Counted from the stretch's first letter, positions 23,398 to 46,690 are shown. The stretch is DNA of 64,000 nucleotides from Escherichia phage AugustSocin (MZ501052), one strand, 5' to 3'. Numbers and translations are program-made. The notes: generated by a model not told the origin, from the sequence alone.

Positions 23398-26300
23398 ATG
23401 GCCGAGATTAAAAGAAAGTTCAGAGCAGAAGATGGTCTGGACGCAGGTGGTGATAAAATAATCAACGTAGCTTTAGCTGATCGTACCGTAGGAACTGACG
23501 GTGTAAACGTTGATTACTTAATTCAAGAAAACACAGTTCAACAATATGATCCAACTCGTGGATATTTAAAAGATTTTGTAATCATTTATGATAACCGCTT
23601 TTGGGCTGCTATAAATGATATTCCAAAACCAGCAGGAGCTTTTAATAGCGTACGATGGAGAGCGTTACGTACTGATGCAAACTGGACAACTGTTTCGTCA
23701 GGACCTTATCAATTAAAATCAGGCGAATCGATTTCAGTTAACACCGCAGCGGGTAATGACATTACATTTACTTTGCCATCTTCTCCAATTGATGGTGATA
23801 CTATCGTTCTCCAAGATATTGGAGGAAAACCTGGAGTTAACCAGGTTTTAATTACAGCTCCGGTACAAAGCATTGTAAACTTTAGAGGTCAACAAGTACG
23901 CTCAGTACTAATGACTCATCCAAAATCACAGATAGTTTTAATTTTTAGTAATCGTCTGTGGCAAATGTATGTTGCTGATTATAGCAGAGAAGCGGCAGTT
24001 GTAACGCCAGCGAGTCTTTATCAAGCGCAATCAAACGATTTTATCGTGCGTAGATTTACTTCTGCTTCAGCAATTAATATTAAACTTCCAAGATTTGCTA
24101 ATCATGGCGATATTATTAATTTCGTTGATTTAGATAAACTGAATCCACTTTATCATACAATTGTTACTACATACGATGAAACGACTTCAGTACAAGAAGT
24201 TGGAACTCATTCCATTGAAGGCCGTACATCTATTGATGGTTTCTTAATGTTTGATGATAATGAGAAATTGTGGAGATTATTTGACGGGGATAGTAAAGCA
24301 CGTTTACGCATTATAACAACTAATTCAAACATCCGTCCAAATGAAGAAGTCATGGTATTTGGCGCGAATAATGGAACAACTCAAACGATTGAACTTCAGC
24401 TTCCAACTGATATTTCTATCGGTGATAATGTTAAGATTTCCATGAATTACATGAGAAAAGGACAAACAGTTAAAATCAAAGCTGCCGGTGAAGATAAAAT
24501 TGCTTCTTCAGTTCAATTGTTGCAATTTCCAAAACGTTCAGAATACCCACCTGAAACTAAATGGGTGACTGTTCAAGAATTAGTTTTTAATGGCGAAACC
24601 AATTATGTTCCAGTTTTACAGCTTGCTTATATCGAAGATTCCGATGGAAAATATTGGGTTGTACAGCAAAACGTTCCAACTGTAGAAAGAGTAGACTCTT
24701 TAAATAATTCTACTAGAGCAAGATTAGGTGTAATTGCATTAGCTACACAGGCTCAAGCTAATGCAGATTTAGAAAATTCTCCACAAAAAGAATTGGCAAT
24801 TACTCCAGAAACGTTAGCTAATCGTACTGCTACAGAAACTCGTAGAGGTATTGCAAGAATAGCAACAACTGCTCAAGTTAACCAGGATACTACATTCTCT
24901 TTTGCAGATGACCTTATCATCACTCCTAAAAAGCTGAATGAAAGAACTGCTACTGAAACTCGCAGAGGTGTTGCTGAAATTGCTACGCAGCAAGAAACTA
25001 ATGCAGGAACCGATGACACTACAATCATCACTCCTAAAAAGCTTCAAGCTCGTCAAGGTTCTGAATCATTATCTGGTATTGTAACTTTTGTATCTACTGC
25101 AGGTGCTACTCCAGCTTCTAGCCGCGAATTAAATGGTACGAATGTTTATAATAAAAACACTAATAACTTAGTTGTTTCACCTAAAGCCTTGGATCAGTAT
25201 AAAGCTACTCCAACACAGCAAGGTGCAGTAATTTTAGCAGTTGAAAGTGAAGTAATTGCTGGTCAAAGTCAAGAAGGATGGGCAAATGCGGTTGTAACGC
25301 CAGAAACGTTACATAAAAAGACATCAACTGATGGAAGAATTGGTTTAATTGAAATTGCTACGCAAAGTGAAGTTAATACAGGAACTGATTATACTCGTGC
25401 AGTCACTCCTAAAACTTTAAATGACCGTAGAGCAACTGAAAGTTTAAGTGGTATAGCTGAAATTGCTACACAAGTTGAATTCGACGCAGGCGTCGACGAT
25501 ACTCGTATCTCTACACCATTAAAAATTAAAACCAGATTTAATAGTACTGATCGTACTTCTGTTGTTGCTCTATCTGGATTAGTTGAATCAGGAACTCTCT
25601 GGGACCATTATACCCTTAATATTCTTGAAGCAAATGAGACACAACGTGGTACACTTCGTGTAGCTACACAGGTCGAAGCTGCTGCAGGAACATTAGATAA
25701 TGTTTTAATAACTCCTAAAAAGCTTTTAGGTACTAAATCTACTGAAGCGCAAGAAGGTGTTATTAAAGTTGCAACTCAGTCTGAAACTGTGGCTGGAACG
25801 TCAGCGAACACTGCTGTATCTCCAAAAAATTTAAAATGGATTGTACAGAGTGAACCTACCTGGGCAGCTACTACTGCGATAAGAGGTTTTGTTAAAACTT
25901 CATCTGGTTCAATTACATTTGTCGGTAATGATACAGTCGGTTCTACCCAAGATTTAGAACTGTATGAGAAAAATAGCTATGCAGTATCACCATATGAATT
26001 AAACCGTGTATTAGCAAATTATTTACCGTTAAAAGCAAAAGCTGCTGATAGTAATTTATTGGATGGTCTAGATTCATCTCAGTTCATTCGTAGGGATATT
26101 GCACAGACGGTTAATGGTTCACTAACCTTAACCCAACAAACGAATCTGAGTGCCCCTCTTGTATCATCTAGTACTGCTACGTTTGGTGGTTCAGTTACAG
26201 CAAATAGTGTACTAACGATTTCTAATACTGGAACAGCAACTCGATTGATTTTTGAGAAAGGACCTCAAACTGGAACAAACCCAGCCCAAACGATGACTGT

Positions 26301-27267
26301 TAGAGTGTGGGGAAATCAATTTAGTGGGGAATTAGATACAACACGTTCTACCGTATTTGAAGTTAGTGATGAAACATCTAGTCATTTTTATTCTCAGCGC
26401 AATAAAGCCGGAAATATAACATTTAATATCAACGGTACAGTAACACCGATAAATGTTAATGCTTCAGGAACATTGAATGCAAATGGCGTAGCAACATTTG
26501 GTAATTCAGTCACTGCAACTGGTGAAATTATTTCTCGAAGCGCAAATGCTTTCCGTGCTATTAACGGAAATTATGGTTTCATTGTTCGCAATGATGGATC
26601 AGTAACGAATTTTATGCTTACTGCATCGGGTGATCAGACTGGTGGATTTAATGGATTACGTCCTTTGGCTATTAATAATGCATCTGGTCAAGTAACGATT
26701 GGTGAAAGCTTAATCATCGCCAAAGGTGCTACTATAAATTCTGGTGGTTTAACTGTTAATTCGAGAATTCGTTCTCAAGGTACTAAAACTTCTGATTTAT
26801 ATACCCGTGCGCCAACATCTGATACTGTAGGATTCTGGTCAATTGATATTAATGATTCAGCTACTTATAACCAGTTCCCAGGTTATTTTAAAATGGTTGA
26901 AAAAACTAATGAAGTGACTGGTCTTCCATATTTAGAACGTGGCGAAGAAGTTAAATCTCCTGGTACACTGACTCAGTTTGGTAACACACTTGATTCGCTT
27001 TACCAAGATTGGATTACTTATCCAACAACTCCAGAAGCGCGTACCACTCGTTGGACCCGCACATGGCAGAAAACCAAAAATTCTTGGTCAAGTTTTGTTC
27101 AGGTATTTGATGGAGGTAACCCTCCTCAACCGTCTGATATCGGTGCTTTACCATCTGATAATGCTACAATGGGGAATCTTACTATTCGTGATTTCTTACG
27201 AATTGGTAATGTTCGCATTATTCCTGACCCAGTGAATAAAACTGTTAAATTTGAATGGGTTGAATAA
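23398..27267 (+). CDS. 34: long tail fibre proximal subunit gp34
   Basis: 1289-aa ORF (T4 gp34 length) with internal TP(K/E)KL...ATE...G..IAT repeats; first gene of 34-38 block. Confidence 0.97.
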   Translation: MAEIKRKFRAEDGLDAGGDKIINVALADRTVGTDGVNVDYLIQENTVQQYDPTRGYLKDFVIIYDNRFWAAINDIPKPAGAFNSVRWRALRTDANWTTVSSGPYQLKSGESISVNTAAGNDITFTLPSSPIDGDTIVLQDIGGKPGVNQVLITAPVQSIVNFRGQQVRSVLMTHPKSQIVLIFSNRLWQMYVADYSREAAVVTPASLYQAQSNDFIVRRFTSASAINIKLPRFANHGDIINFVDLDKLNPLYHTIVTTYDETTSVQEVGTHSIEGRTSIDGFLMFDDNEKLWRLFDGDSKARLRIITTNSNIRPNEEVMVFGANNGTTQTIELQLPTDISIGDNVKISMNYMRKGQTVKIKAAGEDKIASSVQLLQFPKRSEYPPETKWVTVQELVFNGETNYVPVLQLAYIEDSDGKYWVVQQNVPTVERVDSLNNSTRARLGVIALATQAQANADLENSPQKELAITPETLANRTATETRRGIARIATTAQVNQDTTFSFADDLIITPKKLNERTATETRRGVAEIATQQETNAGTDDTTIITPKKLQARQGSESLSGIVTFVSTAGATPASSRELNGTNVYNKNTNNLVVSPKALDQYKATPTQQGAVILAVESEVIAGQSQEGWANAVVTPETLHKKTSTDGRIGLIEIATQSEVNTGTDYTRAVTPKTLNDRRATESLSGIAEIATQVEFDAGVDDTRISTPLKIKTRFNSTDRTSVVALSGLVESGTLWDHYTLNILEANETQRGTLRVATQVEAAAGTLDNVLITPKKLLGTKSTEAQEGVIKVATQSETVAGTSANTAVSPKNLKWIVQSEPTWAATTAIRGFVKTSSGSITFVGNDTVGSTQDLELYEKNSYAVSPYELNRVLANYLPLKAKAADSNLLDGLDSSQFIRRDIAQTVNGSLTLTQQTNLSAPLVSSSTATFGGSVTANSVLTISNTGTATRLIFEKGPQTGTNPAQTMTVRVWGNQFSGELDTTRSTVFEVSDETSSHFYSQRNKAGNITFNINGTVTPINVNASGTLNANGVATFGNSVTATGEIISRSANAFRAINGNYGFIVRNDGSVTNFMLTASGDQTGGFNGLRPLAINNASGQVTIGESLIIAKGATINSGGLTVNSRIRSQGTKTSDLYTRAPTSDTVGFWSIDINDSATYNQFPGYFKMVEKTNEVTGLPYLERGEEVKSPGTLTQFGNTLDSLYQDWITYPTTPEARTTRWTRTWQKTKNSWSSFVQVFDGGNPPQPSDIGALPSDNATMGNLTIRDFLRIGNVRIIPDPVNKTVKFEWVE

Positions 27268-27275
27268 GAGGTATT

Positions 27276-28391
27276 ATGGAAAAATTTATGGCAGAGTTTG
27301 GACAAGGATATGTCCAAACGCCATTTTTATCGGAAAGCAATTCAGTAAGATATAAAATAAGTATAGCGGGTTCTTGCCCGCTTTCTACCGCAGGACCATA
27401 CGTTAAATTTCAGGATAATCCTGTAGGAAGTCAAACATTTAGTGCAGGTCTTCATTTAAGAGTTTTTGACCCTTCCACGGGAGCATTGGTTGATAGTAAG
27501 TCATATGTTTTTTCTACTTCAAATGATACAACATCTGCTGCTTTTGTTAGTTTCATGAATTCTTTTTCAAGCAATAGACTTGTTGCCATATTAACTAGCG
27601 GAAAGGTTAATTTTCCTCCTGAAGTAGTATCTTGGTTAAGAACGGCAGGAACATCTGCTTTTCCATCTGATTCTTTATTGTCAAGATTTGATGTATCATA
27701 TGCTGCCTTTTACACTTCTTCTAAAAGAGCTATCGCACTAGAGCATGTTAAACTGAGTAACAGAAAAAGCACAGATGACTATCAAACTATATTAGATGTA
27801 GTATTTGACAGTTTAGAAGATGTTGGAGCGACAGGATTTCCTAAAAGAACATATGAAAGCGTTGAGCAATTTATGTCAGCTGTTGATGGAACTAATAACG
27901 AAATTGCACGTCTACCTACAGCATCTGCAATAAGTAAACTTTCTGACTATAATTTAATTCCTGGAGATGTTCTTTATCTTAAAGCACAATTATATGCTGA
28001 TGCTGATTTACTTGCTCTTGGAACTACAAATATATCTATCCGTTTTTATAATGCATCAAATGGATATATTTCCTCGACACAAGCTGAGTTTACCGGACAA
28101 GCTGGGTCTTGGGAATTAAAAGAAGATTATGTAGTTGTTCCTGAAAATGCAGTAGGATTTACGATATACGCACAGAGAACTGCGCAAGCGGGACAAGGCG
28201 GTATGAGAAATTTAAGCTTTTCTGAAGTATCAAGAAATGGCGGCATTTCAAAACCCGCTGAATTTGGCGTCAATGGTATTCGAGTTAATTATGTCTGTGA
28301 ATCTGCTTCACCTCCAGATATAATGGTACTTCCTACGCAAGCATCGTCTAAAACTGGTAAAGTGTTTGGGCAAGAATTTAGAGAAGTATAA
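27276..28391 (+). CDS. 35: long tail fibre hinge connector gp35
   Basis: 371-aa ORF MEKFMAEFGQGYVQTPFLSESNSVRYKISIAG... immediately after gene 34. Confidence 0.93.
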   Translation: MEKFMAEFGQGYVQTPFLSESNSVRYKISIAGSCPLSTAGPYVKFQDNPVGSQTFSAGLHLRVFDPSTGALVDSKSYVFSTSNDTTSAAFVSFMNSFSSNRLVAILTSGKVNFPPEVVSWLRTAGTSAFPSDSLLSRFDVSYAAFYTSSKRAIALEHVKLSNRKSTDDYQTILDVVFDSLEDVGATGFPKRTYESVEQFMSAVDGTNNEIARLPTASAISKLSDYNLIPGDVLYLKAQLYADADLLALGTTNISIRFYNASNGYISSTQAEFTGQAGSWELKEDYVVVPENAVGFTIYAQRTAQAGQGGMRNLSFSEVSRNGGISKPAEFGVNGIRVNYVCESASPPDIMVLPTQASSKTGKVFGQEFREV

Positions 28392-28421: not shown

Positions 28422-28423
28422 TT

Positions 28424-28431
28424 ATAAATAC
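28424..28431 (+). promoter_or_regulatory. late promoter TATAAATA for genes 36-38
   Basis: Exact TATAAATA ~23 nt upstream of gene 36 ATG. Confidence 0.7.
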
Positions 28432-28453: not shown

Positions 28454-29110
28454 ATGGCTGATTTAAAAGTAGGTTCAACAACCGGAGGCTCTGTCATTTG
28501 GCATCAAGGAAATTTTCCATTGAATCCAGCCGGTGACGATGTACTCTATAAATCATTTAAAATATATTCAGAATATAATAAACCGCAAGCAACTGATAAC
28601 GATTTCGTTTCTAAAGCTAATGGTGGTACTTATTTAAATAAAGTAATTTTTAATAAAGGAATGACTGTTCCTGGTGCTGGGTCAGGTGACAACGGTATTT
28701 TTGCCGGTCCTGGTGATAATGCCACATATGATACTACAAATATGGATATTGTTTCATGGTATGGTATCGGCTTTAAATCATCACAAGGAGCAGCAGGTAG
28801 AACTGTAGTAATTAACACACGAAACGGAGATATTAGCTCAAAGGGTGTAATTGAAGCATCACAAATACGCGCAACTTCGTTATCACCAGTAAATAATTAT
28901 GACCTTACGAGAAAAGATTATGTTGATGGAGCTATAAATATTGTTACAACAAATGCAAACTCTAGAGTATTACGCTCTGGAGACACTATGACAGGAAATT
29001 TAACTGCGCCAAACCTTTTTTCACAGAATCCTGCATCTCAACCCTCGCATGTTCCGCGATTTGACCAAATCGTAATTAAGGATTCTGTTCAAGATTTCGG
29101 CTATTATTAA
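28454..29110 (+). CDS. 36: long tail fibre distal connector gp36
   Basis: 218-aa ORF between 35 and 37. Confidence 0.9.
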   Translation: MADLKVGSTTGGSVIWHQGNFPLNPAGDDVLYKSFKIYSEYNKPQATDNDFVSKANGGTYLNKVIFNKGMTVPGAGSGDNGIFAGPGDNATYDTTNMDIVSWYGIGFKSSQGAAGRTVVINTRNGDISSKGVIEASQIRATSLSPVNNYDLTRKDYVDGAINIVTTNANSRVLRSGDTMTGNLTAPNLFSQNPASQPSHVPRFDQIVIKDSVQDFGYY

Positions 29111-29118
29111 GAGGACTT

Positions 29119-32100
29119 ATGGCTACTTTAAAACAAATACAATTTAAAAGAAGCAAAACGGCAGGTCAACGTCCAGCTGCTTCAGTATTAGCCGAAGGTG
29201 AATTGGCTATAAACTTAAAAGACCGTGTACTTTTTACTAAAGATGACCAGGGAAATATTATTGATTTAGGTTTTGCTAAAGGCGGTAGTATTGACGGGAA
29301 TGTTATTCATAAAGGCAATTATAACCAAACTGGAGATTATACTTTAAACGGTACATTCACCCAGACTGGTAATTTTAATTTAACCGGTATTGCTCGAGTA
29401 ACTCGTGATATTATTGCTGCTGGGCAGATTATGACTGAAGGCGGAGAACTTATTACAAAAAGTTCAGGTACATCACATGTTCGTTTTCATGATTCAGCTG
29501 ACCGTGAACGTGGAATCATTTTTTCTCCTGCTAATGATGGATTAACTACACAAGTAATTAACATCAGAGTTCAAGATTACAAAGCCGGTTCAGAAAGCAC
29601 TTTCGCTTTTAATGGAAATGGTTTGTTTTCTTCCCCGGAAGTTTTTGGGTGGAAATCTGTATCAACTCCGGTAATTTATACCAATAAAGTTATCACCAAT
29701 AAAAAAGTTAAAGATGATTATGACATCTATTCGATGGCAGACAATGTTCCATTGTCTGAAAGCACTACTGCTATTAATCATCTACGTGTCATGCGCAATG
29801 CAGTCGGTTCTGGTATTTTCCATGAAGTTAAAGATAATGATGGAATAACTTGGTATAGTGGAGATGGATTAGATGCTTATCTGTGGTCATTTACCTGGAG
29901 CGGCGGAATTAAATCAAGTCACTCAATTTCCATCGGTTTAACACCCGGACCTAAGGATTACTCAATATTAGGACCGTCTAGTATCGCTTTAGGAGATAAT
30001 GATACTGGATTTAAATGGCATCAAGACGGATATTATTTCAGTGTTAACAATGGCACAAAAACGTTTTTATTTAGTCCAAGCGAAACAACTAGCCTAAGAA
30101 AATTTGTAGCTGGATATTCTACTAACGGAACCGATTTAACTACTCCTCCAACTGAAAATTATGCTCTTGCTACTGTAGTGACATACCATGATAATAACGC
30201 GTTTGGGGATGGTCAGACTCTTTTAGGATATTATCAAGGCGGTAACTATCATCATTATTTCCGCGGCAAGGGCACTACAAACATTAATACTCACGGCGGG
30301 TTGTTAGTTACTCCAGGCAATATTGACGTTATTGGTGGTTCTGTTAATATCGATGGTAGAAATAATGCTTCTACAGCGATGTTTAAAGGTAACACAACAG
30401 GTAGTAGTTCTGTGGATAACATGACAATTTCTGTGTGGGGTAATACATTTATTAATCCAAGCGAAGGCACCCGCAAAAATGTCATGGAAATTTCCGATGC
30501 AACTAGCTGGATGAGCTATATTCAAAGACTTACTACTGGTGAAGTAGAAATGAACGTTAACGGTTCATTTGAATCATCTGGTGTTACTGCTGGAAATAGA
30601 GGAGTTCACACAACAGGCGAAATTTCATCTGGAGCAATGAATGCGCTTCGCATTTGGAATGCAGATTATGGAGCCATTTTTAGACGTTCAGAAGGAAGTC
30701 TTCATATTATTCCAACTGCTTACGGTGAAGGCAAAAATGGTGATATCGGTCCACTTCGTCCATTTAGTATTGCTTTGGATACTGGTAAGGTTGTTATTCC
30801 AGATTTAGAATCAAGTTATAACACGTTTGCTGCAAATGGTTACATTAAATTTGCTGGTCATGGGGCTGGTGCCGGCGGTTATGATATTCAGTATTCACAA
30901 GCTGCTCCTATTTTCCAAGAAATCGATGATGCTGCTGTAAGCAAATATTATCCTATTGTTAAACAGAAGTTTTTAAACGGTAAAGCCGTTTGGTCTTTAG
31001 GTACTGAAATTAATTCAGGTACTTTTGTTTTACACCATTTAAAAGAAGATGGGACACAAGGACATACATCAAGATTTAATGCTGATGGTACAGTTAATTT
31101 CCCCGATAACGTTCAGGTCGGCGGCGGTGAAGCTACTATTGCTCGTAATGGTAATATTTTCTCAGATATTTGGAAATCGTTTACTTCTGCGGGAGAAACC
31201 ACAAATATTCGCGATGCAATAGCTACTCGTGTTTCTAAAGAAGGCGACACGATGACTGGTAAATTGACTTTATCAGCAGGCAATGATGCTCTCGTTTTAA
31301 CTGCAGGCACGGGCGCTTCATCGCACATCCGTAGTGATGTAGGTGGTACAAGTAATTGGTATATTGGTAAAGGCGGTGCCGACAATGGTCTAGGTTTTTA
31401 CAGTTATGTTACACAAGGCGGTGTATATATAACAAATAACGGAGAAATATCACTTTCTCCTCAAGGACAAGGAACATTTAATTTTAATAGAGACCGCCTC
31501 TATATAAACGGTACACAATGGACCGCACATCAAGCTGGTGACTGGGCTAACCAATGGCGTCAAGAAGCACCGGTATTTGTAGATTTTGGTAATGTCGGTA
31601 ATGATAGTTATTATCCTATTATTAAAGGAAAATCCGGTATTACTGATGAAGGATACATATCTGGTGTAGATTTTGGTATGCGACGCATTACTAATACATG
31701 GGCACAAGGTATTATCCGTGTAGGTAATCAGGAAAACGGTTCCGACCCACAAGCTATCTATGAATTTCACTCTAATGGTACTTTTTATGCTCCGAGCTTA
31801 CTTAAGAGCGGTAGAGTATCAGCTGGTGGTGGTGACCCTGCATGGGGCGGGCCGTGTATTGTACTTGGAGATAACGATACCGGTTTGCTTTGGGAAAACG
31901 ATGGTATTTTCAACGCATATGCAAACGGCCAAGGTGTGTTTAGTTTTAGACCTGGTTTAGCTCAGACATTCGGTGGTGTTAACTTCCACTGTAATGCAGG
32001 TATGTATGTTCGTGATAACATTGATGTTAACGACGTTTATATTCGTTCTGATATTCGTTGTAAGTCGGAAATTAAGCTTATTAAGAACGCTCAAGAGAAA

Positions 32101-32367
32101 TCTAAACTATTGGGCGGTTATACTTATCTGCTTAAAAACTCTGTTACAGACGAAGTTAAACCGTCCGCAGGTTTAATTGCTCAGGAAGTTCAAGAAGTAT
32201 TACCTGAACTTGTTTCTGAAGATAAAGAGACCGGACTGCTTCGTTTGAACTATAACGGTATTATTGGTTTAAATACAGCTGCAATAAACGAGCATACAGA
32301 TGAAATAAAGGAATTGAAATCTGAAATTGCCGAATTGAAAGCATTAATTAAATCATTGATAAAATAA
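29119..32367 (+). CDS. 37: long tail fibre distal subunit gp37 with C-terminal intramolecular-chaperone-like domain
   Basis: 1082-aa ORF; C-terminal ~110 aa (DVYIRSDIRCKSEIKLIK...LLRLNYNGIIGLNTAAINEHTDEIKELKSEIAELKALIK) resembles tail-fibre/tailspike self-cleaving chaperone domains. Confidence 0.93.
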   Translation: MATLKQIQFKRSKTAGQRPAASVLAEGELAINLKDRVLFTKDDQGNIIDLGFAKGGSIDGNVIHKGNYNQTGDYTLNGTFTQTGNFNLTGIARVTRDIIAAGQIMTEGGELITKSSGTSHVRFHDSADRERGIIFSPANDGLTTQVINIRVQDYKAGSESTFAFNGNGLFSSPEVFGWKSVSTPVIYTNKVITNKKVKDDYDIYSMADNVPLSESTTAINHLRVMRNAVGSGIFHEVKDNDGITWYSGDGLDAYLWSFTWSGGIKSSHSISIGLTPGPKDYSILGPSSIALGDNDTGFKWHQDGYYFSVNNGTKTFLFSPSETTSLRKFVAGYSTNGTDLTTPPTENYALATVVTYHDNNAFGDGQTLLGYYQGGNYHHYFRGKGTTNINTHGGLLVTPGNIDVIGGSVNIDGRNNASTAMFKGNTTGSSSVDNMTISVWGNTFINPSEGTRKNVMEISDATSWMSYIQRLTTGEVEMNVNGSFESSGVTAGNRGVHTTGEISSGAMNALRIWNADYGAIFRRSEGSLHIIPTAYGEGKNGDIGPLRPFSIALDTGKVVIPDLESSYNTFAANGYIKFAGHGAGAGGYDIQYSQAAPIFQEIDDAAVSKYYPIVKQKFLNGKAVWSLGTEINSGTFVLHHLKEDGTQGHTSRFNADGTVNFPDNVQVGGGEATIARNGNIFSDIWKSFTSAGETTNIRDAIATRVSKEGDTMTGKLTLSAGNDALVLTAGTGASSHIRSDVGGTSNWYIGKGGADNGLGFYSYVTQGGVYITNNGEISLSPQGQGTFNFNRDRLYINGTQWTAHQAGDWANQWRQEAPVFVDFGNVGNDSYYPIIKGKSGITDEGYISGVDFGMRRITNTWAQGIIRVGNQENGSDPQAIYEFHSNGTFYAPSLLKSGRVSAGGGDPAWGGPCIVLGDNDTGLLWENDGIFNAYANGQGVFSFRPGLAQTFGGVNFHCNAGMYVRDNIDVNDVYIRSDIRCKSEIKLIKNAQEKSKLLGGYTYLLKNSVTDEVKPSAGLIAQEVQEVLPELVSEDKETGLLRLNYNGIIGLNTAAINEHTDEIKELKSEIAELKALIKSLIK

Positions 32368-32372
32368 TAAAA

Positions 32373-32386
32373 GGGCCTTCGGGCCC
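32373..32386 (+). other. stable hairpin GGGCC-UUCG-GGCCC in the 37-38 intercistronic region
   Basis: Perfect 5-bp GC stem with UUCG tetraloop 12 nt before gene 38 ATG; no U-tract. Confidence 0.5.
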
Positions 32387-32397
32387 TGGAGGTTTAT

Positions 32398-33177
32398 ATG
32401 GCAGTAGTAGGAATCCCTGGTTGGATTGGGACTTCAGCCGTTGCTGAAACGGGACAAAGATGGATGACGGCTGCTTCAAGGGAACTTCGTTTAGGAAACC
32501 CTTCATGGATGTCCCAATTCGCGGGCCGTTCAAGAGAAATAATTCACACACTTGGAGAAGACCATAACTTCAATGGTCAATGGTTCCGTGACCGTTGTTT
32601 TGAGGCAGGTAGTGCACCTATAGTGTTTAATATCACCGGAAATTTGGTATCATATAGTAAAGATGTTCCATTATTCTTTATGTATGGCGATACGCCAAAT
32701 GAATATGTTACTTTGAATATTCATGGTGGGGTTCATATGTGGGGACGAGGTGGTAACGGTACTGTAAACGGAAACCCAGGCACAAATGGTGGCGATGTAA
32801 TCCAAAATGATATCGGCGGAAGACTTCGTATTTGGAACTATGGCGTTATTGCATCAGGCGGCGGCGGTGGTGGTGCAGTGTCATTACAGAATAGCTGGGC
32901 GCCAAATGCTACAGCAGGTGGCGGTGGCGGCAGACCATTTGGCCTCGGCGGAGGCGGCGTTAATTGGCCGGGTGGTAATGCTAGTTATGACGCCCCGGGC
33001 GGAGCCGGTTACACTTCCCAATTCGGCGGAGGCAATGGCGGTGATGCCGGAGGATGGGGCGGAGATGGATGGGGTAATCACTTATCTAGATCTGGCGGTG
33101 GTGCTCCTGGCAGAGCAGTATTCGGAAGTTCACCGTCATGGGGTGCTACAGGCACAATCTACGGCTCCTGGATTTAA
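32398..33177 (+). CDS. 38: tail fibre adhesin gp38 (T2-type, glycine-rich motifs)
   Basis: 259-aa ORF with poly-Gly blocks ([48 protein letters not shown]) separated by short variable segments. Confidence 0.9.
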
Positions 33178-33195
33178 ACGATAATACCTCTCAAT

Positions 33196-33203
33196 TATAA
33201 ATA
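33196..33203 (+). promoter_or_regulatory. late promoter TATAAATA for holin t
   Basis: Exact TATAAATA ~20 nt upstream of t ATG. Confidence 0.7.
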
Positions 33204-33222
33204 TTGATAAATGGGAGGTAAT

Positions 33223-33882
33223 ATGGCAGCACCAAAAGTATCATTTTCGCCTAGTGATATTTTATTTGGGTTGCTAGACCGCATTTTCAAAGATAACGCC
33301 TCTGGAAATATTCTTATTTCCAGAGTTGCTGTTGTAGTTCTTTTGTTCCTAATGGCACTAATATGGTACAAAGGGAATATTTTTATGGATTATTACGTGA
33401 GGTCGAAATATGATACTTACACAGAAGTAATTCAAAAAGAAAGAAATACACGATTTGAATCTGCGGCTTTAGAACAACTACAAATAGTCCACGTCACATC
33501 AAGGGCGGATTTTAGTTCGGTGTATTCTTTCAGACCTAAAAATCTAAATTATTTCGTCGACCTTATTGCGTATGAAGGTAAGTTACCTAGCACAGTAACT
33601 GAAAAATCTATGGGAGGATTTCCTGTCGATAAAACGACAGCAGAATATTCGGTCCATTTAAGTGGACTTCACTTTACTTCTAAAACAGATTTTGCTTTCT
33701 TACCTACCAAATCAAAAACTCCGGAACTGGCATATATGTATAGTTGTCCTTACTTCAATTTGGATAACATATATGCTGGAACTGTTTCTATGTATTGGTA
33801 TAAGGGGTCAGATGTGTTAAATGAAGAACGCTTGGCCGCAATATGCAACCAAGCTGCAAGGATATTAGGGCGGGCTAAATAA
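33223..33882 (+). CDS. t: holin / lysis inhibition sensor T
   Basis: 219 aa from MAAPKVSFSPSDILFGLLDRIFKDN... with one N-terminal TM segment; GGGAGG RBS before this ATG (track ORF starts 4 codons upstream). Confidence 0.93.
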   Translation: MAAPKVSFSPSDILFGLLDRIFKDNASGNILISRVAVVVLLFLMALIWYKGNIFMDYYVRSKYDTYTEVIQKERNTRFESAALEQLQIVHVTSRADFSSVYSFRPKNLNYFVDLIAYEGKLPSTVTEKSMGGFPVDKTTAEYSVHLSGLHFTSKTDFAFLPTKSKTPELAYMYSCPYFNLDNIYAGTVSMYWYKGSDVLNEERLAAICNQAARILGRAK

Positions 33883-34155
33883 TTAGTTGTTAGAATACAT
33901 CGTCAAATGGCGATAAATATTTTCAAAACCTTCATTGAATTCACTAATCAGTGTTTTCTTTTCTTCGGCAGTTAAATTTGTAATTAGTTTTCTGAACGAA
34001 TTCTGATTTAGCTGCCGACCATCTTTTTTAATTCCAATCTCATTCAAGAATCCGATGAAATTTGCTCGGTCTTCAACAATATCTTCCCTCGAGAATTTAA
34101 TCAAAATAGAAGCAATAGTAATAATTTCACGTACGATTTCAATGTCTTTATTCAT
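33883..34155 (-). CDS. asiA: anti-sigma70 factor AsiA
   Basis: 90-aa ORF MNKDIEIVREIITIASILIKFSREDIVEDRANFIGFLNEIG..., T4 AsiA length and sequence pattern. Confidence 0.93.
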   Translation of the reverse strand: MNKDIEIVREIITIASILIKFSREDIVEDRANFIGFLNEIGIKKDGRQLNQNSFRKLITNLTAEEKKTLISEFNEGFENIYRHLTMYSNN

Positions 34156-34201
34156 AACGTTTTATTCATTCCATTTGGTTGATATGGGTATAGTACCATT
34201 A

Positions 34202-34417
34202 TCAGTGTTGATTGTAAATGGCTTTTTCTACGCTTTTAACGTAATTGGTGTAGTCTTCCTGTTCGTACGAGTGTAAGGCTAAGAACAAAGCTAATAGTTC
34301 ATTATAGACTAAAGCCTCACGCTCACGTTCGGCCTCTATTACGTTCTGAAGATTATGACTCATATTGTTCCTTATAACTATCAATGTAGTCCTGTATGTC
34401 GAAGAATGACATTTCAT
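34202..34417 (-). CDS. hypothetical protein
   Basis: 71-aa ORF; 5' part overlaps the next ORF out of frame. Confidence 0.45.
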   Translation of the reverse strand: MKCHSSTYRTTLIVIRNNMSHNLQNVIEAEREREALVYNELLALFLALHSYEQEDYTNYVKSVEKAIYNQH

Positions 34418-34739
34418 ATTCTAGGGCATTAAGAGCCCGTTCTTCAGTATAGTCAGAACCAAAGACGATAGTGATTTCACCAGGCTTCATGTGATTGAAA
34501 TCAACACTAAAAGGAATACGAGAACATACTTCGTCTGCCATATCTGCAACAACACTACGATATACTTCTCGGTTAACCTGATAAAGCTCTGCAAGTTCTT
34601 CGCATCGAATAACAAGTTCAGTGGCAAGATTTTCTTTGATTTTAGTAAACATAGTCTTTACCCTTATGTTTTTGTTTGCGTTTAGATTGAAGTTCTGATT
34701 TCTTCTTGTCCTTATGAACAGAAGCCTTATTGAAATCAT
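34353..34739 (-). CDS. hypothetical protein
   Basis: 128-aa ORF in asiA-motA interval. Confidence 0.55.
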   Translation of the reverse strand: MISIRLLFIRTRRNQNFNLNANKNIRVKTMFTKIKENLATELVIRCEELAELYQVNREVYRSVVADMADEVCSRIPFSVDFNHMKPGEITIVFGSDYTEERALNALEYEMSFFDIQDYIDSYKEQYES

Positions 34740-34954
34740 GTTTTGCTACAAGATTGTTCATAATGATTTATAACCTCGTTTAAACATTTGTCTGTGAAAG
34801 AAAACTTTTTAGCCACAGAACATTCGATGATGTGTTCTTTCAAATCTTTAGAGTCAGTATATCCCATCTCAGTAATAAAGTGACGAATTAAAGCTTTATT
34901 CTTATCATTAACAGAATTAAAATAATCTGCTTTAGAATCAATTATTCTCATCAT
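34736..34954 (-). CDS. hypothetical protein
   Basis: 72-aa ORF. Confidence 0.5.
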   Translation of the reverse strand: MMRIIDSKADYFNSVNDKNKALIRHFITEMGYTDSKDLKEHIIECSVAKKFSFTDKCLNEVINHYEQSCSKT

Positions 34955-35219
34955 CTAATTTCCTTAACTGATATTGCAATGAGCTAATAATTTCTTCGTT
35001 CATTTTAATATACATGTCACGCAAGAAAGGTTTTAACCCTTCACGAATAATTGCTAATGTATCACCTTTACATAGATTGACCAAATAAGGATGATCTAAA
35101 GCATCCCAACCGGGCTGATTAGCATACATACCATAATTTTCTTCCATCATATGATTAAGACGTTTGATATCTTGGATACGTGATTCAATAGCATCTTTCT
35201 GGAGTTGTTTAATATTCAT
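34938..35219 (-). CDS. hypothetical protein (possibly the arn position)
   Basis: 93-aa acidic ORF in the interval where T4 carries arn; identity not verified. Confidence 0.45.
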   Translation of the reverse strand: MNIKQLQKDAIESRIQDIKRLNHMMEENYGMYANQPGWDALDHPYLVNLCKGDTLAIIREGLKPFLRDMYIKMNEEIISSLQYQLRKLDDENN

Positions 35220-35683
35220 TAATAAAGGTCCTCTGAATAAAGTTCTTTTTCACTACCACCACGTTCAATACGTACTTGTCCAGCGTAAGTTGCAATAATC
35301 ATTGCTTCTTCACGTGTCCAATAATTACTGTATTGGTCAATAAACCCTTGGTCATCATCACAAACTTGTTGAGTAACTAATTGAGGTTTAACTACATCTA
35401 AAACTTCTGCCATATCTTTAGAATAATGACGAGCACCAGGAATAACAAGAGTTCGTCCATCTTTTAATTTAAAACGGTTGGCTGCACAGACAATTCGTCG
35501 TTGATACTTTTGGTTTTCATCCCAATACGCAGTCTGCCAACATATTTCAGGAACTTCTTTCAGAACATCTTCTTCCGTATAATTAGTATAACCTGTTGAT
35601 TTAAATTTTTCGGCTAAACTCTCTGGAGTCTCACGAGATAATGCAACGTTTAGCATTTCAAGTCTTTCTTCAAATGTTTTCAT
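35219..35683 (-). CDS. hypothetical protein
   Basis: 154-aa ORF. Confidence 0.55.
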
Positions 35684-44834: not shown

Positions 44835-44870
44835 CAATTAATTATACCACATCCTTGTGGTAAAGTAAAC
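44835..44870 (-). promoter_or_regulatory. early promoter with hairpin in spacer
   Basis: Minus-sense GTTTAC then TACCAC-aaggat-GTGGTA inverted repeat and AT-rich -10, upstream of rIIA.1. Confidence 0.5.
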
Positions 44871-46690
44871 TACTGGCTCATCCATTCTTTACGAAGGTCA
44901 GCATTATCTCCCATGAGCATTTCAAAAAGCTCTTTCCAGTTCTCAGGAAGTTTAACAACATCATATACTGGGTTTTGAATCATCTCACGATATTCAGATT
45001 TTTCCAAAGAGCCAAGTCCCTTAATATAACGGATGCTATGTTTAGGTAGAGCATCTTTGGCACTCTCATATTCAGCGACTGTATAAAACCATTCTTGTTT
45101 TTTACCGACCTGAGCGATGATTACAGGAGTTTTGACAAAGCGAATTCGTCCTTGCTCAAACAATTCTGGCCAATTACTAAAAAATCCGAGCAGAGAAGGA
45201 TAAATGCTTCCTAGACCATCATGGTCAGCATCAGTCATAATAGCAATATTATGATAATTCAAGTTTTCAGCTTTTTCACCGAGAACTAATCCAGTGATTG
45301 CGCAAATATCAAATAGTTCTTTGTTTTTAAGCATATCTGCATAAGACATACCCCAACTGTTGAGAACTTTACCGCGCAATGGATAACCACCATGAAGTTC
45401 TTTATCACGAACATCAATAAGATATCCGATAGCAGAATCACCCTCAGTCAAGAAAAGAGTAGTATCAGCATCTTTACCGCAAAGATTCGCTTTGATATGT
45501 TTATGAACCTTAGCTTTAGAAGCCTTTTTAGCTGCTTTAGTTTCTGCTGCTTTTTCTGCCGCCAATTTACGAGCCAAAGCAGCTTCAATAATTGGCATCA
45601 GAATTGCTTCATTATTCAAAATAGCACGTGAAATCTTTTTAGCATCAAGCTGAATATGACTACGGATTTCACCAAATGGAGAAGTCAAACGCTCTTTAGT
45701 TTGAGAATCAAATCGCATGTTTTTCATATCACGGACAAACATAACGATAGTCAAACATTCTTTAACGCGTGCTTTAGTCACATCAATTTTGAACTTACGT
45801 TTGATTTGTGGAATAAGGTCTTCACAAATATCATCCATAACACAGTCAATGTGATGGCCACCATTCTTAGTGTGAATGTTATTCACATAAGTTAATTGAC
45901 GAAAACCATCCGGTGAACGACCAACCGCAATAGAGCAATTTTCTTGTTCTTGAACGATAGCATGCTCATCATATTGGCGTGCATATTTCTTAAAATTGCC
46001 CTGAACCTTTTTACCATTAAAGGTAAATTGAATATCAGGATAAACTACTGCAAGTGTCTGGAGACGATCTAGTGTAATGTCAAGATAAACTTGGGACAGC
46101 TCATTAGTTTCAAATGACATAAAATCTGGAATGAAAGTAACACGAGTTCCTTTCCATTTTCCAGGAATAGTTTCCCAGGATTTATTTTCCATGCCATTTG
46201 AACAACGAACTACAATATTATTTTGACCATCGCCAGTTTCACCGACAAACATCACAGAAAAAATGTTAGTTAAACTAGAACCAACACCATTCATACCACC
46301 GGTGACACGTTCTTTATCATCACCAAAGTTACCACCCGCTTTTGGAATAGTCCAGGCAGCAACTGGACCAGGAATTTCTTCACCGGTAGGTGTTTTAACC
46401 ATCGCTTGTGGAATACCACGACCGTTATCTTCAACTGTTACTTGATTGTTTTTGATAGTAACATTAATTTTATTTGCGAATTTAAACTTAGTACGAATAC
46501 CTTCATCTACTGAGTTATCGATAATTTCATCAATAAGCTTAACAAGACCAGGTACATACTGAACACTTTCCCATTTACCAAACAGAAAGCGCTCATGCAT
46601 TTCATTAGCAGAAGAGCCAATATACATGCCGCTACGCTTTTTGATATGTTCAATATCGCTCAGAATTTTAATTTCATTCTTAATCATCAC
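44870..46690 (-). CDS. 39: DNA topoisomerase II large subunit, single uninterrupted ORF (39 and 60 equivalent fused)
   Basis: 606-aa ORF with GHKL ATPase and Toprim-like regions; no separate gene 60. Confidence 0.93.
   Translation of the reverse strand: MMIKNEIKILSDIEHIKKRSGMYIGSSANEMHERFLFGKWESVQYVPGLVKLIDEIIDNSVDEGIRTKFKFANKINVTIKNNQVTVEDNGRGIPQAMVKTPTGEEIPGPVAAWTIPKAGGNFGDDKERVTGGMNGVGSSLTNIFSVMFVGETGDGQNNIVVRCSNGMENKSWETIPGKWKGTRVTFIPDFMSFETNELSQVYLDITLDRLQTLAVVYPDIQFTFNGKKVQGNFKKYARQYDEHAIVQEQENCSIAVGRSPDGFRQLTYVNNIHTKNGGHHIDCVMDDICEDLIPQIKRKFKIDVTKARVKECLTIVMFVRDMKNMRFDSQTKERLTSPFGEIRSHIQLDAKKISRAILNNEAILMPIIEAALARKLAAEKAAETKAAKKASKAKVHKHIKANLCGKDADTTLFLTEGDSAIGYLIDVRDKELHGGYPLRGKVLNSWGMSYADMLKNKELFDICAITGLVLGEKAENLNYHNIAIMTDADHDGLGSIYPSLLGFFSNWPELFEQGRIRFVKTPVIIAQVGKKQEWFYTVAEYESAKDALPKHSIRYIKGLGSLEKSEYREMIQNPVYDVVKLPENWKELFEMLMGDNADLRKEWMSQ

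Follow-up and report, generated by a model that had tools for sequence, protein, structure and literature searches.

Organization of the tail-fibre locus

The distal tail-fibre locus of Escherichia phage AugustSocin (MZ501052) was studied in a 64,000-nucleotide (nt) stretch of the phage genome, hereafter referred to as the window. Positions 29119–33177 are occupied by exactly two open reading frames (ORFs) of the plus strand, and extend from the start of gene 37, encoding the distal half-fibre subunit, to the stop codon of gene 38, encoding a monomeric tail-fibre tip adhesin. Gene 38 is placed directly 3' of gene 37 and 5' of the holin gene t, with a matching layout in T2, T6, PP01, RB51 and AlbertHofmann. 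Translations of the window coincide residue for residue with the AugustSocin proteins gp34 (QXV76292.1), gp37 (QXV76295.1) and gp38 (QXV76296.1), and residues 1–1080 of gp37 match the family phrog_1699, "long tail fiber protein distal subunit" (E = 0). In DNA comparison, the window flanks are 95–96.6% identical to many Tequatrovirus genomes, while the best match to the locus itself in a phage collection that lacks the record MZ501052 is 91.9%. Coordinates of all features are given in Table 1.

Table 1. Features of the AugustSocin tail-fibre locus and its surroundings, in window coordinates.
Feature	Position	Strand	Remarks
Late promoter box TATAAATA	23356	+	just 5' of gene 34
Gene 34 (gp34)	23398–27267		T-even late tail-fibre cluster
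Gene 35 (gp35)	27276–28391		tail-fibre cluster
T4-type late promoter box TATAAATA	28423–28430	+	24 nt 5' of gene 36
Gene 36 (gp36)	28454–29110		tail-fibre cluster
Gene 37, distal half-fibre subunit	29119–32367	+	1082 amino acids (aa) as translated; phrog_1699 match
gp37 N-terminus and shaft, residues about 1–745	29119–31350	+	RB51-like Tequatrovirus allele
gp34-trimerisation-like shaft domain, gp37 residues 450–551	30466–30771	+	Pfam Gp34_trimer, 6.3e-08
Mosigvirus-type block, about 3.9 kb	31350–35270		gp37 residues about 745–1082, gp38, t, asiA, four small arn-region ORFs, end of the ORF 35219–35683
Predicted mature distal tip, gp37 residues 908–976	31840–32046	+	ends in DVYIR; alignment with 6F45_A
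C-terminal intramolecular chaperone domain, gp37 residues 977–1082	32047–32364	+	106 aa; Peptidase_S74
Ser977 codon of gp37	32047–32049	+	
Lys982 codon of gp37	32062–32064	+	
Intercistronic hairpin GGGCC-UUCG-GGCCC	32373–32386	+	in the spacer (30 nt) separating genes 37 and 38
Ribosome-binding site GGAGG	32388–32392	+	3' of the intercistronic hairpin
Gene 38, monomeric tail-fibre tip adhesin	32398–33177	+	259 aa; Pfam GP38 and Gp38_N
gp38 N-terminal attachment domain, residues 1–42	32398–32523	+	tryptophans W9, W22, W37
gp38 receptor-recognition loops A–E	32761–33090	+	between glycine-rich motifs; PP01 loop mapping
Loop A, residues 122–127	32761–32778	+	
Loop B, residues 163–172	32884–32913	+	
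Loop C, residues 186–190	32953–32967	+	
Loop D, residues 205–209	33010–33024	+	
Loop E, residues 223–231	33064–33090	+	
Gln208 codon CAA of gp38	33019–33021	+	OmpF/OmpW switch position; equals RB51 residue 206
Late promoter box TATAAATA	33196–33203	+	5' of holin gene t
Holin gene t	33223–33882	+	219 aa from ATG 33223; Phage_holin_T, 5.6e-89
asiA	33883–34155	–	Pfam AsiA, 6.7e-33

Domain architecture of gp38 and gp37

Two Pfam families cover gp38 almost entirely, Gp38_N (PF21721) at residues 1–42 (7.4e-21, 74.3 bits) and GP38 (PF05268) at residues 47–259 (1.8e-82, 276.8 bits), the cut-off being 25 bits in both cases, and the protein also matches phrog_2056 (6.8e-109). Among crystal structures, it matches the adhesins of PP01 (PDB 9V85, 5.1e-73 over residues 39–258), which is the closest solved one, and of S16 (6F45_D, 5.7e-49). 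All 14 adhesins of known receptor class constituting alignment A1 have tryptophans W9, W22 and W37, which also align with the tryptophans of S16 gp38. Glycine makes up 34.9% of residues 111–259 compared to 10.9% of residues 1–110, forming 14 runs of at least two residues. The glycine columns are invariant across all receptor classes, whereas loops A–E, defined by transferring the boundaries of the PP01 crystal structure via alignment A1, are only 11–31% identical between classes (loop identities were calculated after re-aligning an overlapping set of 15 adhesins).

PP01 gp38 has a beta-helix that is 91% identical to residues 47–110 of the window protein, and loops that can be mapped one to one, but these receptor loops are only 23% identical, and PP01 binds OmpC of O157. 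OmpC is also the receptor of S16 in Salmonella. Because of the matches to the solved structures 9V85 and 6F45_D, the glycine-rich motifs of AugustSocin gp38 probably form a three-layer polyglycine-II sandwich. S16 gp38 contains a beta-helix and such a sandwich, the latter built of ten glycine-rich motifs with five distal loops (S16 authors).

The C-terminal end of gp37 belongs to the Peptidase_S74 family (PF13884), residues 977–1032 matching model positions 1–57 out of 58 (9.9e-12, 45.4 bits, gathering cut-off 22), and residues 908–1082 align with the S16 gp37 tip construct 6F45_A (6.7e-31). Neither these matches nor those of gp38 can be coincidental. The gp37 protein of S16 ends in a self-cleaving intramolecular chaperone of 113 residues, and the cut at DLNVS^SDRRIKK exposes a docking surface; in the fPS phages, the corresponding sequence reads DVYIR^SDGRLKI, with DVYIR described as the strand forming the docking tip. 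The corresponding junction in the window reads DVYIR^SDIRCK, and the Ser/Lys motif S-D-x-R-x-K, present here as S977-D-I-R-C-K982, is conserved in T2, T6, RB51, PP01, FL33 and AlbertHofmann and aligns with the S16 cleavage site. In endosialidases this motif supplies the catalytic Ser/Lys dyad; their Peptidase_S74 domains have the same C-terminal position and the same motif followed by a heptad-like helical tail, but are carried by tailspikes rather than by a T-even tail fibre, and in our case autocleavage is a prediction. C-terminal processing of T2 gp37 is known since the 1980s. By analogy, the cut in AugustSocin gp37 is predicted between Arg976 and Ser977, releasing 106 aa.

The fibre tip of S16 (gp37 trimer with gp38, PDB 6F45) resembles the one expected here in its autocleavage-exposed trimeric tip and in a single gp38 docked via three tryptophans, the differences being the receptor, the distant sequence (see the gp38 score above), the length of the released domain (113 compared to 106 aa), and the cleavage site (S^S compared to R^S). 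Further upstream, the segment of the gp37 shaft matching Gp34_trimer also matches the gp34 structures 4UXE and 5NXF (about 1e-13), and resembles the C-terminal trimerisation domain of gp34.

The module is of the T2 type

T4 gp38 (183 aa) has no Pfam match and no detectable similarity to the window gp38 (BLASTP E = 0.44, the best segment having 11 identities out of 52). The gp37 proteins differ as well: a Pfam search of T4 gp37 yields Collar and Phage_fiber repeats, with a His-rich needle end and no S74 domain, while the window gp37 matches neither Collar nor Phage_fiber and ends in S74. The Pfam architecture of T2 gp37 and gp38 is the same as in the window, and the T4 RefSeq annotation states that "gp38" of the T2 subfamily is an unrelated adhesin. 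The order of genes 34-35-36-37-38-t and a hairpin between genes 37 and 38 are common to T4 and AugustSocin, but in T4 the receptor is bound by the gp37 needle.

These data agree well with three statements made by the sequence-only reading. It had assigned the module to the gp38-adhesin (T2) type rather than to the T4 type, as follows also from the unrelated T4 gp38, the T4 gp37 without S74, and the matching T2 architecture; it had described gp38 as a conserved N-terminal part followed by glycine blocks with variable segments in between, which is seen in the loops and the glycine counts; and the chaperone-like domain of about 110 aa at the gp37 end corresponds to the Peptidase_S74 match, with 106 aa from Ser977 to the C-terminus.

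Homologues of the window gp38 are found in 793 records of the phage collection, compared to 297 records with T4-type gp38. Together with the remark of Trojet et al. (PMC3157838) that the T4 version does not predominate, these counts make the adhesin-type module the majority form among T4-like phages, and hence an ordinary arrangement rather than an exception.

Many GenBank records of close gp38 homologues bear the names "distal long tail fiber assembly catalyst" or "long tail fiber assembly chaperone". Both names derive from T4 gp38, to which these proteins are unrelated, and are wrong for a T2-type adhesin.

OmpF as the primary receptor

The receptor-binding part of gp38 is identical or nearly identical to that of phages whose dependence on OmpF has been established experimentally. 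From AlbertHofmann (Bas47), for which ompF dependence was shown and complemented, the window protein differs only by E54T and S72G, residues 73–259 being identical. The loops A–E of RB51, FL31, FL33 and fPS-90 match those of the window at 100% identity; these phages were assigned to OmpF by random-barcode transposon sequencing (RB-TnSeq; RB51), with deletion mutants (FL31 and FL33), and with resistant mutants and complementation in Yersinia (fPS-90). Over residues 111–259, identity is 97–100% to AlbertHofmann, RB51, FL31, FL33, fPS-2 and fPS-90, compared to 48–55% to T2 (FadL), T6 (Tsx), PP01 and AR1 (OmpC), and PaulHMueller and FL20 (OmpA). In the neighbour-joining tree, the window gp38 groups with the OmpF-dependent adhesins, apart from the other classes.

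A single residue of loop D is of special importance. According to a preprint, the substitution Q206L in RB51 gp38 is both necessary and sufficient for the switch from OmpF to OmpW; the window gp38 carries glutamine at this position, that is, the OmpF state.

These observations agree with direct experimental data. Table S5 of the BASEL study lists Bas38 AugustSocin (MZ501052, Tequatrovirus) with OmpF as the primary and the lipopolysaccharide (LPS) deep core as the terminal receptor in E. coli K-12, and in a preprint, RB-TnSeq likewise identified OmpF as the Bas38 receptor, both in BW25113 and in O157:H7 backgrounds. The primary receptor of AugustSocin is the porin OmpF, as already published. 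OmpF would be contacted by the gp38 loops, given that swaps and mutagenesis have demonstrated such contacts in homologues, though not in AugustSocin.

The sequence-only reading had proposed the variable gp38 segments as host-range determinants, which is supported by published mutagenesis, cross-linking and swaps in homologues; its further statement that the receptor could not be inferred from sequence fails in view of the OmpF-dependent relatives described above. In 2021, the BASEL authors considered the sequence analysis of tip adhesins "ambiguous", and, according to two studies, the receptor can be predicted from gp38 phylogeny. In the OmpF clade, the gp38 sequence now predicts the receptor, down to one switch residue.

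Several peculiarities of residues in this region were observed. Trp220 of gp38 (codon TGG, 33055–33057) is situated inside the glycine-rich motif between loops D and E. Of ten OmpF-clade adhesins, those of the window and of AlbertHofmann alone have tryptophan at this position; the remaining eight have arginine, encoded by CGG where the codon was read (TH12, RB51).

The 1777-nt locus of fPS-2 (LR215722.1) contains a sole non-ACGT base, at position 1123, so that codon 208 of gp38 reads CNA. In RB51, an A-to-T change of this very nucleotide replaces Gln by Leu and thereby OmpF by OmpW (preprint, 2026). The lysate from which fPS-2 was sequenced may have contained a mixture of Gln and Leu variants.

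The records of RB51 (FJ839693.1) and RB68 (KM607004.1) are identical from gene 36 to t (5717-nt loci), both with Gln206 (CAA). In the preprint, the RB68 stock has the Q206L allele, and its receptor on BW25113 is OmpW; as the public RB68 record has Gln206, the Q206L allele belongs to that stock and not to the GenBank record.

A block of Mosigvirus-type alleles

Sliding identity in 100-nt bins reveals a block whose left edge is located between 31350 and 31750, while the right edge, at about 35270 within the ORF 35219–35683, is sharp. RB51-like sequence makes up gene 36 and the part of gene 37 before about 31350, with 95–100% nucleotide identity in most bins, gene 36 being 62–80% identical to that of Mosigvirus phages. 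From about 31350 to 35270, identity to TH12, AlbertHofmann and ChristianSchoenbein is 95–100% in most bins (83–100% overall), compared to only 35–80% to T2, T6, T4, PP01 and FL33, and beyond 35280 the window is Tequatrovirus-like again. For the holin gene t taken separately, nucleotide identity is 97–100% to AlbertHofmann, TH12, ChristianSchoenbein and FL31, and 60–80% to T2, T6, T4, PP01, RB51 and FL33. Hence, a Mosigvirus-type block of about 3.9 kb is joined here to an RB51-like Tequatrovirus gp37 shaft. The presence of such a block in a Tequatrovirus backbone suggests that the adhesin arrived, or was exchanged, by recombination between the genera. The block is an example of typical T-even mosaicism.

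The two types of alleles are represented by two close relatives. AlbertHofmann, a Mosigvirus, shares with the window 99.2% of gp38, including Trp220, the gp37 chaperone domain (96–100%), the same hairpin between genes 37 and 38, and the holin and arn-region block (95–100% identical), and depends on OmpF; it differs in genus, in gene 36, and in divergent patches of the gp37 shaft, e.g., 58% identity at residues 701–750. RB51/RB68, of the genus Tequatrovirus, shares the gp37 shaft, residues 1–750 being 94–100% identical (96–100% in 14 of the 15 50-aa bins), and 99% of gp38 residues 111–259, with all five loops identical and the switch glutamine in common, and RB51 binds OmpF; but its gp37 tip and chaperone are of another type (34–62% at residues 901–1050), and RB51 has Arg220 in place of Trp220.

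At least 80% of the block is covered in seventeen records, with TH12 (97.3%) as the best match, and the taxonomy of block-covering records, where read, is Mosigvirus; this includes ChristianSchoenbein and CEV1, which cover 73–77%. The right junction is spanned at 92–95% identity by G2540, phiC600P9, phiD1, slur03, slur08, slur14 and Aplg8.

We considered and rejected the possibility that the block is unique to AugustSocin: its right junction recurs in several phages besides AugustSocin, including at least one, G2540, with a Tequatrovirus backbone. The exact gp37 mosaic alone lacks a close counterpart, the best match being 92.7%.

The OmpF receptor-binding domain occurs with three pairings of the gp38 N-terminal part and the gp37 tip and chaperone, found in the window, AlbertHofmann and TH12; in ChristianSchoenbein and FL33 (T6-like); and in RB51 and FL31 (PP01-like). 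This fits the known modular shuffling of the locus.

Expression signals and neighbouring genes

The T4-type late promoter box upstream of gene 36 is likely to start the late transcript of genes 36, 37 and 38. Boxes of this sequence are not found in the window above chance (8 compared to 9.7 expected), and the assignment, which we consider likely, is based on the position and on the established knowledge of T4 late promoters, not on the box count. At the place equivalent to the box preceding the holin gene t, the fPS-2 record annotates a "predicted late promoter".

The hairpin between genes 37 and 38 is retained, with compensatory changes in the stem, in T2, T6, T4, RB51, PP01, FL33 and ChristianSchoenbein; its presence in T4 is observed despite the unrelated gp38 of that phage. 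It is probably one of the stable C(UUCG)G hairpins known from intercistronic regions of T4.

The mechanically defined ORF of the holin gene t opens at ATG 33211 (223 aa). GGGAGG at 33212–33217 is the ribosome-binding site for ATG 33223, and the start at this codon yields the 219-aa holin as annotated in relatives, the exact protein being present on 142 contigs. Downstream of t, the minus strand contains asiA, small arn-region ORFs, motA and gene 52.

At 44870–46690, on the minus strand, one 606-aa ORF contains the HATPase_c, DNA_gyraseB, Toprim and TOPRIM_C domains; as all four are found in a single ORF, the large subunit of topoisomerase II is unsplit in the window. In T4, this subunit is divided between genes 39 and 60, and a translational bypass occurs. 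Scans of the whole 64-kb window for tRNA genes and for Rfam families (at the gathering score) found neither, which fits the zero introns reported for Bas38 in BASEL Table S5.

Proposed mechanism and alternatives

We propose, with a probability of about 0.93, that the locus is an ordinary, characterised T2-type receptor-recognition module of the T-even phage AugustSocin (Bas38), with OmpF as the receptor; the steps of expression, trimerisation, cleavage and docking are assigned by homology. Genes 36, 37 and 38 would be transcribed late. gp37 would trimerise with the aid of its own C-terminal S74-type chaperone domain of 106 aa, which would then remove itself after Arg976 by Ser977/Lys982 autoproteolysis, exposing a flat DVYIR tip. 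One gp38 would dock on the trimeric tip via its N-terminal domain and tryptophans W9, W22 and W37, as in S16, where the base of the gp37 trimer has three hydrophobic pockets filled by three conserved gp38 tryptophans (S16 authors). The polyglycine-II sandwich would hold out the five variable loops at the distal extremity of the fibre, and the binding to OmpF would come first, with short tail fibres, encoded outside the window, subsequently binding the LPS core.

Some points weigh against this interpretation. The presence of gp38 in the virion and the cleavage of gp37 in AugustSocin are expected by analogy with S16 and with older data on T2; among the adhesins compared, Trp220 is shared only with AlbertHofmann; and, for the origin of the module, we infer the direction in which the block was transferred, similar alleles being present in some phages with a Tequatrovirus backbone.

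A T4-like mechanism, in which gp38 acts only as an assembly chaperone and is not part of the virion, while the receptor is bound by the gp37 tip, would agree with the names "assembly catalyst" and "assembly chaperone" given to close gp38 homologues in GenBank, but such names are transferred from T4, to whose gp38 the window protein is unrelated, as noted by the T4 RefSeq record itself for the T2 subfamily. As gp38 belongs to a Pfam adhesin family whose members bind at the fibre tip in crystal structures, gp37 lacks the Collar and needle of T4 and ends in a removable S74 domain, and the receptor of relatives is switched by gp38 swaps and point mutations, this mechanism seems extremely improbable. 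Hardly more credible is a primary E. coli receptor other than OmpF, e.g., OmpW, FadL, OmpC, OmpA or Tsx. The ease of the switch in this clade, where a single substitution is sufficient to replace OmpF by OmpW, the uncommon Trp220, and the ambiguity noted by the BASEL authors in 2021 speak in its favour; against it, the switch codon of the window is CAA (Gln), the whole receptor-binding domain, Trp220 included, is identical to that of the OmpF-dependent AlbertHofmann, the loops are only 11–31% identical to those of the FadL, Tsx, OmpC and OmpA adhesins, and Bas38 itself has been assigned to OmpF by knockout plating and RB-TnSeq.

An alternative that adds to the OmpF reading rather than excludes it is dual specificity, with the distal gp37 shaft or gp38 first contacting a surface glycan, e.g., the O157 group 4 capsule or the LPS outer core. 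According to a 2026 preprint, six out of six OmpF-binding T-even phages tested in O157:H7 (RB51, RB68, Bas38, Bas47, K20 and CEV1) require the gfc-etk group 4 capsule, via "an unknown factor". Four of them, Bas38, Bas47, RB51 and CEV1, share both a near-identical gp38 receptor-binding domain and gp37 residues 1–100 and 301–700 (88–100%), and fPS-2 and fPS-90 require the LPS outer core in addition to OmpF. On the other hand, the OmpA binder LZ9 is also capsule-dependent, and the authors see porin and capsule specificity as decoupled. Moreover, the comparison with CEV1, having five gp38 substitutions beyond residue 47 and sharing gp37 residues 1–100 and 301–700 at 88–99%, does not separate gp37 from gp38. 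Virion proteins encoded outside the window could also be responsible, the candidates being whiskers, Hoc and gp12. On balance, we regard dual specificity as unlikely. It is equally doubtful that the distal fibre module is the phage factor behind the group 4 capsule dependence of OmpF-binding T-even phages in O157:H7, through either its gp38 of the OmpF type or those segments of the gp37 shaft that are common to Bas38, Bas47, RB51 and CEV1; if this were true, one module would read two surface layers in sequence.

Biological implications

T2-type gp38 adhesins have been known since the 1980s. Two crystal structures are available, and neither the kind of module described here nor its structure nor, in AugustSocin, its receptor is new. 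The main value of the analysis is the correct annotation of an adhesin misnamed in many records. It also provides a worked example of receptor prediction, as the blind inference made from sequence matched the published OmpF experiment. The 3.9-kb block is an addition to what the sequence-only reading contained: in it, the adhesin travels with the holin, asiA and arn-region genes across the boundary between Tequatrovirus and Mosigvirus, which illustrates the movement of host range in T-even phages.

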